Shown here: piece after piece, positions 12,001 through 15,000 of the stretch
How the letters are laid out: each line of letters opens with the position of its first letter
Position numbering within the stretch: the first letter of the stretch is position 1
Assembly: GCF_053078305.1 (NCBI RefSeq)
Contig: NZ_CP166879.1
Strand: one strand, 5' to 3'
Length of the DNA: 64,000 nt
Made by a program: the position numbers

Positions 12001-15000
12001 CATAGCTGCCGCAGATGACAATGCTTTTATCCCTTTTCACTATCATACCCTTTATCCTTGCTGAATCGAAGCAGCAGCAAGATGATTCTGAAGTTCAGGA
12101 ATTATTTGCGCAAGGCCCGGCAAATCAGATTCGATAGCAACTCAAGCTGATGCGCCGTTTCCATGTTCAGCCACACATAACCATAGATTGGTGTTTCCAC
12201 AACCTTCAGGTCATGGTGGTTATTGAGCAACTGACGCAGCTCTTCCACAGCATCGTTCAATTTTTCCGTATTGGCAAAAACCGGCTGCGGATTACCTTCG
12301 TACAGCGCATGAACAAGGCTCAGCAGTATTTGCTGCATCATGTGCTGGGTGTCACGAAGTTTTTGCGCGTTCAATAACACGAAATGGCTGGGGCGCGTGG
12401 CCCAGTATGCATTGATTTGCAACTCCAGCATACAAACCAGATTGCGGTTAATGGTCTGGATACCTTCATATATCGATTTTGGAATACGGGTTTCTTTGCT
12501 GGCGGGCGCAATCAACCCACGCATTTTCACGGCATCGGTCAAGAGTTTTTGTAGATGGCTTTCCAGACGTGGGCGTTCGAGTAAGTTCGGTGAGAATGCA
12601 GATTGATAGACCCGATTATACTCGGTCAGACTTTTCGCCAGTTGAATACGCCAGTGGATGAACGCCCGTTGTGGCCAGATACCGGTAAACAACATTGCCA
12701 GTAAAGAGCCGAGGATCACATCGCCGCTTCGCCATAACGCCGTATCAATTTCACCTGTAGGGGAACCCACAACAATTGCCAGCGTCACCCCAATCAATAA
12801 ACCTTGATACGGTTTCTTGCCCAGCGCCAGCCAACCGCAAAGAAACATAGCCGCCGCGCACCAGACTAACATCAGCGGTAACGAAATTAACTCCAGTTGC
12901 AGAGCGATAAGACCTAAAATCGAACCCAACACCGTACCGCCAATACGCTCAAAGGCGCGAGGGACAACGTTACCCCAGAACGAGATTGGCCCCATAATCA
13001 CCACCATGGTGACCAGCGGCCAGGTGCTTTCCGGGATAGTAAACAGGCGGATAATGAGAAAAGTGAGCAGGAATGCCAGCGCGACCCGAGTACCATGCAC
13101 AATGCGGTAATGGCGGTATACCCGGATTTCAAACGGGCTTAATGACTTATCGGCACGCACGCAGAAACTCCGTAATGAAGATTAAAAGCGCTCATAACTC
13201 ATCTGTCGGCCAGAAGGCGCGCCTCTGAATTATCCGACGGACAAACCGGGAACAGTGTAATTTCCCGGCAGGAGCGAAAAAATTGAAAGGCGCATCTTAC
13301 TCTTTTCGCTTTCAAAAAAAAGAGTGGTCATCGCGTTAACACACCGCCCTGAGATGAATTAGTGATGTTTTGGCTGCACCGCAACATACATTTCGATATC
13401 CCAGTACCCATCTTCCGCGCCATTGTTCAAATAAACCTCGAAGCAGGGCTTTGGTAACATTTCATAAGCACTGTCCTGCAAGAGGCTATTAAAGAACTGA
13501 TACCAGGGTTTAGCAAAATCATCACCGACTACACGAGCTACCGCCACCGCATACTGACCACCTGAAATTTCTGTCAGAATGACGCCCTCACTGTTTTCGG
13601 GAAGCGTAAAGTAACCCGGCACCGTCACGACGGTGTCGCAGCGTAATTTTTCGGCGGGTGTTTCATCTGGATTGTCGTAATAGACAGCAACCCACTCCTT
13701 CGGCACAATATTTTTACTATCTACCCACATCATCAACTGCTCAAAACCTTTCTTTACCGTCTGTTCCCACGGGCCAACGAGATGGAAACCTGCAACGGTA
13801 CGTTTCTCTTCCTGCTTAATCTCGTAGTTCATGACGCCTCCATTAACACTGTTTTTATATACAGTATAGTTGCAAAATTAAAACCACAAGGAATGAGTGT
13901 TGATTATGCGAGCAGACTCGCACTCCTGCCAGTCTGCTGCAAAAGAAAGGTCAGGCCTTATGGTGGAAATAATCACTCAGGCGGGAAAACATGCCGCCTT
14001 CCCCGACAGATTCCAGGGTAACCAGCGGCCAGTGCGCCACCTCTTTATCACGGTCGTAAAGTTCAATTTCCCCTACCCGCTGATGGGCGCTAATTGGCGC
14101 GGTGAGTTCTTTACCATCAAGGGTATATTTGGCTTTGATATGTGGAATTTCGGCTTTCGGTAGCACCATCCAGAACTCTTGTTCCGTTCCCAGGTCGATA
14201 TTTTCTTTATCGCCATACCAGATGCGTTCCGTTCCGACCTTTTTCCCACGGTGCAAAATTTGCACCGTAGTAAAGTTTTGTTGCCCCCAACGTAGTAATT
14301 TTCTTGCCTCTTCCTCACGACCTTTTGCACTGTCAGCCCCCATTACCACTGCAATGAGACGACGCTGCCCATCTACAGCCGAAGCAATGAGATTAAACCC
14401 GGCACCAGAAGTATGACCCGTTTTCAGGCCGTCAACATTCATGGTTTTATCCCACAATAACCCGTTACGGTTTTGCTGGGTGATACCGTTCCAGGTGAGG
14501 CTTTTCTCACTGTACATATGATAAAACTCGGGCTCGCCGTGGATGATAGCACGAGAAAGCACAGCTAAATCATAAGCCGAGCTATGCTGACCTGGCGCAT
14601 CCAGGCCATGCACTGTTTCAAAATGCGTATCCTTGAGATGCAGCTTCTCGGCATAGTTGTTCATCATTTCAACAAACTGCCGTTGCCCACCGGCAATATA
14701 GTCAGCCAGAGCAACACAAGCGTCATTTCCGGAATCAACAATTAAACCACGGCTTAAATCACGTACCGATACGCGATCGCCCTCTTTCAAAAACATCAGT
14801 GAAGAACCGACAAACACCGGATTGTCTTTCGCCCACGCATCGCGCCCCACGGTGACAATATCGTCTGGCGTAATGCGATGACTATCGATAGCACGATCCA
14901 CGACATAGCCCGTCATCAGCTTTGTCAGGCTGGCGGGATTGCGCTGTTGATGCTCATTACCCGCGGTGAGGATCTGACCGGTGGTGTAATCCATCAATAC

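Follow-up and report, generated by a model that had tools for sequence, protein, structure and literature searches.

The window, a stretch of 64,000 nt of an Escherichia coli chromosome (NZ_CP166879.1), carries the gene sbmC (gyrI) on its minus strand, with a coding sequence of 157 amino acids at 13359..13832 and the start codon ATG at 13832..13830. This open reading frame matches the NCBIfam equivalog NF007451, "DNA gyrase inhibitor SbmC," over its full length with 299.7 bits (cut-off, 179), and an 801-nt region matches the sbmC/dacD locus in 5418 of 5426 complete E. coli genomes. The gene order at the locus is yeeA-sbmC-dacD-sbcB. An earlier note on this DNA had named sbmC as the gene downstream of an SOS box, and both the equivalog match and the locus synteny bear out that identification. 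SbmC/GyrI shields gyrase from microcin B17 and other poisons (PMC1635313, PMC10886550).

Upstream on the same strand lies dacD (13951..15117), recognized by its open reading frame and by synteny, whose stop codon TGA occupies 13953..13951; the interval 13833..13950 is exactly the intergenic spacer between dacD and sbmC. A Shine-Dalgarno sequence, GGAGG, is located at 13837..13841 (minus strand), 4 nt before the ATG, and its GGAG is invariant in an alignment of 23 sequences. Folding revealed a stable hairpin in the 3' trailer of dacD (13907..13941, minus strand), which lacks a U tract and overlaps a binding site of the CRP-S type (Sxy-dependent CRP). The 66-nt minus-strand stretch containing it, 13960..13895, has a folding energy of -24.6 kcal/mol (z = -3.35), and its pair counts are no higher than those of shuffled sequences (71.4% paired versus 70.9%). 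An Rfam search of the dacD-sbmC intergenic region returned zero matches, and no canonical terminator was found between dacD and the SOS box.

A perfect CTGT-N8-ACAG palindrome was found within this spacer at 13849..13864. The 16-mer at this position is CTGTTTTTATATACAG, a sequence check of the window found ctgtttttatatacag present there exactly, and all eight bases of the N8 centre are A or T (100%), so that the coordinates and the AT-rich centre given in the earlier note are exact. The distance of 17 bp upstream of the sbmC start that it reported is correct as an offset, with 16 bases lying between the 16-mer and the ATG (13832). Extended to the 20-mer TACTGTATATAAAAACAGTG, the site covers 13847..13866 on the minus strand (read 13866..13847), leaving a gap of 14 bases to the ATG, and motif, statistics, the match to K-12, and conservation all identify it as a LexA operator (SOS box).

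Taken by itself, CTGT-N8-ACAG does not reach significance in a 64-kb sequence, with one occurrence observed against 0.47 expected and at least one occurrence in 38 of 100 shuffles. The consensus 20-mer, TACTGTATATATATACAGTA, searched with up to three mismatches, gave one match in the window and none in 100 shuffles; the window 20-mer agrees with the consensus TACTG(TA)5CAGTA at 17 of 20 positions. For the heterology index (HI), we built a matrix from the 17 K-12 operators printed in Table 4 of PMC3009722, with sbmC left out, as a substitute for the original Lewis/Courcelle matrix. With this 17-site matrix, whose absolute values are approximate and not comparable with published HI values, the window box has an HI of 2.62, ranks about 5th of 18, and scores better than recA, sulA, and lexA. 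A symmetrised, equally approximate version of the matrix gave an HI of 3.69 on a scale where the training sites span 1.8 to 11.9, the runner-up in the window has 11.4, and 200 random windows gave 7.26 at best. The G at position 20, in place of the consensus A, costs about 2 HI units with both substitute matrices, and even with this G the HI lies within the recA/sulA range of the 17-site matrix. LexA motif scoring, which the earlier note had suggested as a check and in which a high value would have counted against the site, therefore returned a low, approximate HI of 2.6 to 3.7.

In the alignment of 23 sequences, four blocks stand out as conserved while the rest of the spacer varies, namely, TGCGA-GTCTGC-TCGCA with its flanks, an invariant TTG at 13889..13887, a TA.A.T motif followed by the LexA box, and GGAGG. 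The invariant TTG suggests a -35 hexamer, TTGTGG, at 13884..13889 (minus strand), and the alignment likewise points to a -10 hexamer, TATACT, at 13863..13868 (minus strand; CTATACT with the C at 13869), of which TACT is common with the LexA 20-mer. The -10 positions T-12, A-11, and T-7 are invariant or nearly so across the 23 sequences. The first two of these, T 13868 and A 13867, lie outside the LexA 20-mer and are nonetheless conserved, which supports TATACT as the -10 hexamer. Transcription is predicted to start at about 13856, at the centre of the box, which would place the box at roughly -10 to +10; with 4 nt of the 20-mer in common with the putative -10 hexamer, the overlap of box and sbmC promoter described in the earlier note holds. 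The 5' boundary of the UV-induced K-12 transcript in a tiling-array study corresponds to about 13858 in the window, ±7 nt, and thus falls inside the box (PMC3009722).

A scan of species-representative genomes yielded 80 sbmC loci from about 20 genera, in 50 of which the -10 hexamer has the form TA[TCG][AG][CG]T. The predicted spacer between the -35 and -10 hexamers is 18 nt in 30 loci, 17 nt in 14, 16 nt in 4, and 15 nt in 3, with E. coli among the last. A simple sigma-70 scan that allowed spacers of 16 to 18 nt returned no minus-strand promoter at the box, the predicted spacer there being 15 nt long and hence out of range. This spacer also fits the absence of a sigma-70 call for sbmC by a published prediction tool (PMC5999292). 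The only sbmC start in the genome-wide list of transcription start sites of Kim 2012, obtained under noninducing conditions, is a weak distal one (2 reads) located 571 nt upstream inside dacD. The sbmC core promoter is weak, with TTGTGG as its -35 hexamer and a 15-nt spacer. Its CTATACT motif in E. coli presumably resembles the -10 preference of sigma-S, and regulation of sbmC by RpoS and H-NS has been reported. A sigma-54 reading of a conserved TGGCA was rejected, since sequence inspection found no GC at the correct spacing.

The first of the conserved blocks is a putative CRP-S site at 13904..13925 (minus strand), assigned from sequence, conservation, and the K-12 literature. Its core, TGCGAGTCTGCTCGCA, at 13922..13907 (centre, 13914.5) reads TGCGA-GTCTGC-TCGCA and fits the 22-bp CRP-type palindrome with TGCGA-N6-TCGCA; it is invariant in the 23-sequence alignment and was found in 52 of the 80 loci. 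In 50 of these 52, a TTGnnn hexamer begins exactly 25.5 nt downstream of the centre. A CRP site centred 25.5 nt before the -35 hexamer has the class I geometry of the lac promoter. Relative to the predicted +1, the centre is at -61.5 in 30 loci, against about -61.5 for class I, and at -58.5 in E. coli, where the spacer is 15 nt. Induction of sbmC in K-12 requires CRP, cAMP, and Sxy, and the site has been described there as CRP-S with a class I mechanism (PMC1635313). The earlier reading of this intergenic region did not mention this conserved activator site.

Across the Enterobacteriaceae, the best LexA-type site lies 14 to 24 nt before the sbmC ATG in 77 of the 80 loci, and the CTG and CAG columns of the box are invariant or nearly so in the 23-sequence alignment. 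A perfect CTGT-N8-ACAG occurs in Citrobacter, Salmonella, Kluyvera, Atlantibacter, Pseudocitrobacter, and most Escherichia. The two divergent Escherichia loci of strain E69 and E. albertii have CCAG as the right half, and the promoter-side half is GTGT in Enterobacter, Lelliottia, Leclercia, and Silvania and ATGT in Klebsiella and Raoultella. Within E. coli, we sampled K-12 and nine more genomes, and 8 of the 10 contain the 19 nt TACTGTATATAAAAACAGT followed by A or G at position 20. The exceptions are fS149a, whose box is interrupted by an IS element, and the divergent strain E69, which has TGCTGTATATAAAACCAGTA; in the other sampled strains, the polymorphism falls just outside the box. The exact 75-nt haplotype of the window is shared by 133 complete E. 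coli genomes, compared with 645 genomes for that of K-12 and 193 for a third one.

Published work on the damage response agrees with this assignment. In K-12, the sbmC box has a reported HI of 2.8, AZT induces the gene 5.7-fold, and a noncleavable lexA3 background lowers its expression 9.5-fold (PMC11228462); the same box was the highest-scoring SOS-box instance upstream of UV-induced genes in the tiling-array study (PMC3009722). The gene appears in a list of SOS genes (PMC6590174) and is described, after Baquero et al. 1995, as induced by both SOS and stationary phase (PMC5999292, PMC10886550). The LexA box of Salmonella sbmC, located 21 bp from the ATG, has an HI of 6.32, and the gene is induced 3.55-fold by nalidixic acid and shows a LexA-independent basal population next to a LexA-dependent "high ON" population (PMC8072944). 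The sbmC response was also found to be biphasic with a larger late peak, for which an alternative sigma factor is suspected (PMC5999292). SOS induction of sbmC, which the earlier note had expected and whose absence it would have taken as a refutation, has thus been recorded with AZT and UV in K-12 and with nalidixic acid in Salmonella.

We are therefore highly confident that 13847..13866 is the LexA operator of the sbmC (gyrI) promoter on an E. coli chromosome. The comparison supports placing the box as a Gammaproteobacterial (E. coli-type) LexA operator, for which LexA binding and derepression would be as at the near-identical K-12 site from which they are taken. The feature itself is already known, being the textbook LexA operator of the gyrase inhibitor gene.

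A LexA dimer on TACTGTATATAAAAACAGTG, spanning about -10 to +10 and including four bases of TATACT, would deny RNA polymerase access to the promoter or prevent its opening in this strain. Upon DNA damage or replication arrest, RecA filaments would stimulate the self-cleavage of LexA, an established mechanism of the SOS response (PMC6590174), and the operator would be vacated. The vacated operator would allow transcription of sbmC, followed by translation from the strong GGAGG ribosome-binding site. Further inputs would be cAMP-CRP with Sxy acting at the CRP-S site in its putative lac-type class I geometry and stationary-phase control; with a core promoter this weak, expression would be expected to depend on these inputs as well.

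How much of the control of sbmC passes through LexA can be read in another way, in which the operator is functional and LexA is a minor input, owing to the G20 allele and the weak promoter, while cAMP-CRP with Sxy and the use of a stationary-phase sigma factor dominate. The cost of about 2 HI units for the G at position 20, the absolute requirement of measured K-12 sbmC induction for CRP and Sxy (PMC1635313), the biphasic response with its larger late peak and suspected alternative sigma factor (PMC5999292), the LexA-independent basal subpopulation in Salmonella (PMC8072944), and a CRP-S block conserved at least as well as the LexA box all point in this direction. Yet the HI with G is still in the range of recA and sulA, dinB functions with G at the same position (PMC3009722), the other 19 nt are kept in all of the sampled E. 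coli but fS149a and E69, and K-12 sbmC depends 9.5-fold on LexA cleavage (PMC11228462). A weakened operator ruled by other inputs is thus not the favoured reading, and we consider a minor role for LexA unlikely.

Still less probable is a main role of the palindrome on the other strand, either in a plus-strand promoter giving a LexA-controlled transcript antisense to the 3' end of dacD or with LexA as a roadblock to read-through from dacD. A promoter-like TTAACA-N16-TATAGT at 13843..13870 (plus strand) has the LexA core as its spacer and, at 10 of 12 matching positions, outscores all minus-strand candidates of the simple scan; the corresponding K-12 hexamer is TTGATA, and the lack of a canonical terminator between dacD and the box would suit a roadblock. 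However, several versions of the plus-strand -35 occur within E. coli (TTAACA, TTGATA, TTATTA, and CTAATA), the A-11 position (13866) varies among genera, no conserved plus-strand open reading frame or Rfam RNA was found downstream, and all of the conserved geometry (CRP-S, -35, -10, and Shine-Dalgarno sequence) is directed at sbmC. With neither its -35 nor its A-11 conserved, the plus-strand promoter through the box is probably incidental. An A/T-rich palindrome that arose by chance and regulates nothing would explain the unremarkable statistics of the bare pattern (0.47 expected per window; present in 38% of shuffles), but the 20-mer is significant, its position is conserved in about 20 genera, 19 nt are kept in most sampled E. 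coli, and LexA dependence has been published for the near-identical K-12 site (PMC11228462). The statistics of the 20-mer together with its conservation rule out such an accident for practical purposes. The reading of the site as the LexA operator of sbmC is therefore retained.

SOS control of sbmC belongs to the established connection between DNA damage and the tolerance of gyrase-targeting agents. A classical SOS operator and its gene were correctly recognized in the window, a result of little importance beyond annotation. What the comparison adds is a layout conserved across the Enterobacteriaceae, in which the CRP-S site is followed after 25.5 nt by the -35 hexamer and then by a -10 hexamer fused to a LexA half-site, together with the shortened spacer of Escherichia and the natural allelic and structural variation of the operator. 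It is improbable, though conceivable, that the natural differences at this promoter are adaptive and adjust the dosage of SbmC to gyrase poisons, as opposed to being neutral drift. Such a reading would draw on the change from A to G at position 20, the unusually short 15-nt spacer of Escherichia, the replacement of the CTG half-site by GTG or ATG in Enterobacter and Klebsiella, and the loss of the box from some strains through IS insertions or deletions. Just as improbably, the operator might also gate a plus-strand antisense start toward dacD.

The closest known system is the sbmC promoter of K-12, whose box, TACTGTATATAAAAACAGTA, has 19 of 20 bases as in the window and lies in the same locus (dacD-sbmC-yeeA) at the same distance from the ATG. 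The alignment with MG1655, which runs from the stop codon of dacD into the first codons of sbmC, shows only two base differences. One of these is the outermost base of the box, position 20 (13847), which is A in K-12 and G in the window; this difference from K-12 did not figure in the earlier reading, and the proven dinB operator also has G at this position (PMC3009722). The other, at 13845, is two positions past the end of the box, with T in the window and C in K-12.

The E. coli umuDC box, also TACTGTATATAAAAACAGTA, is a 20-mer identical to that of K-12 sbmC and hence likewise shares 19 of 20 bases with the window; it belongs to another gene and promoter and is among the strongest chromosomal operators. 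AZT induction in K-12 is 56-fold for umuD and 5.7-fold for sbmC (PMC11228462). With identical boxes, this gap shows that the output of sbmC depends on promoter context in addition to the box, and induction of about 6-fold from an equally good operator would follow from a weak core promoter and the other inputs.

The orthologous sbmC promoter of Salmonella enterica also contains a perfect CTGT-N8-ACAG, with a gap of 16 nt between the 20-mer and the ATG in the loci analyzed here, and has the same layout of CRP-S, -35, and -10 as that of E. coli. In contrast to the window, the centre of the Salmonella box is TATATAAATA or TATATAAGTA, and the spacer between the -35 and -10 hexamers is 16 to 17 nt as opposed to 15 nt in E. 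coli. CRP-S promoters such as those of ppdD and yrfD have the same core, TGCGA-N6-TCGCA, with C6 and G17 instead of the canonical T and A. Unlike these other CRP-S promoters, that of sbmC does not serve a DNA uptake gene and is additionally under direct repression by LexA.

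The sbmC LexA box (13847..13866) has an altered promoter-side half-site in several other genera. At sbmC loci of Enterobacter, Lelliottia, Leclercia, Silvania, and Huaxiibacter (L024, L029-L037, L039-L042, L054, L056-L057, L059, L065, L068, L070, and L080-L081 of our comparison set), this half-site reads GTGT, at a position where LexA boxes are near-invariantly CTGT, and in Klebsiella and Raoultella (L062-L064, L069, L071, and L074) it reads ATGT. The distal ACAG half is retained at these loci, and their heterology index (HI), which is low for a good LexA site, is raised to about 4 to 14. 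This suggests that LexA control of sbmC is weaker or otherwise changed in these genera.

The HI of a given box can itself vary. When PMC11228462 Table 1 is set against PMC3009722 Table 4, the K-12 sbmC and umuD boxes are the same 20-mer, yet they have different published HI values, 2.8 and 2.1, respectively. With our own matrix, a single site scored in its two orientations yielded 2.39 and 5.26. The discrepancy between umuD and sbmC probably arises from strand or orientation, the matrix being asymmetric.

The promoter accompanying the box also differs between lineages. In E. coli, including the window, the inferred -35 (TTGTGG) and -10 (TATACT) hexamers are separated by just 15 nt (13869..13883), while the spacer measures 16 nt in divergent Escherichia and one Salmonella, 17 nt in most Citrobacter, and 18 nt in Enterobacter, Kluyvera, and Leclercia. 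The 15-nt spacer of E. coli is a lineage-specific shortening. On the plus strand, there is a promoter-like match (TTAACA-16-TATAGT, 10/12 positions; 13843..13870) whose spacer coincides exactly with the LexA core, and a transcript starting from this match would run antisense, into the 3' end of dacD. Its -35 element is polymorphic among E. coli strains, and the match lacks conservation between genera.

Several relatives carry damaged boxes or genes. In E. coli fS149a (NZ_CM176575.1, about positions 1..110 of locus L089), the box bears an insertion of ISKox3 (ISL3-like), with IS sequence in place of the left half-site, the -10, the -35, and the CRP-S (Sxy-dependent CRP) site, so that only ATATAAAAACAGTG is left. 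E. coli 2014C-3011 (NZ_CP027591.1, L090) has exactly the promoter haplotype of the window, together with an sbmC truncated by an IS30 element and a frameshifted dacD. In Escherichia sp. MOD1-EC7003 (L082, 1440..1500), a deletion of ~17 bp has taken out the greater part of the LexA box (…CATACTGATTGGAGG…). Here sbmC is matched over residues 1-82 only, and the gene therefore appears to be decaying.

Beyond the promoter, the window as a whole (1..64000) resembles a mosaic in the region around the recombination hot spot at his and the O-antigen genes. Among complete E. coli genomes, none exceeded about 99.0% identity to its first 25 kb or 98.3% identity across 25-50 kb, the latter containing an O11-family O-antigen cluster that adjoins gnd and the genes for colanic acid (wca). 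Downstream of sbmC, a simple scan of the sbmC-yeeA spacer (13161..13358) found no terminator-like or promoter-like sites. Since yeeA is among the UV-induced genes of K-12 (PMC3009722 Table 5), read-through is possible, and LexA-controlled transcription may pass from sbmC into yeeA.

At the other end of sbmC, the CRP-S site is overlapped by a stable minus-strand hairpin (13907..13941) that lies 10 nt beyond the stop codon of dacD. Folding of a 66-nt stretch that includes the hairpin gave -24.6 kcal/mol (z = -3.35), and a covariation test gave 71.4% paired versus 70.9% in shuffles. As it lacks a U tract, the hairpin is not a canonical terminator. The CRP-S site, a perfect minus-strand palindrome (TGCGA-GTCTGC-TCGCA; 13904..13925, core 13907..13922), shares the intergenic region with the LexA box and was missing from the earlier note. 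Across genera, the spacer TCTGC and the flanks CTGGCA and CATAAT of this site do not vary, a degree of conservation that would seem to exceed what CRP contacts alone need. This palindrome is the already known site of sbmC that depends on Sxy and CRP.
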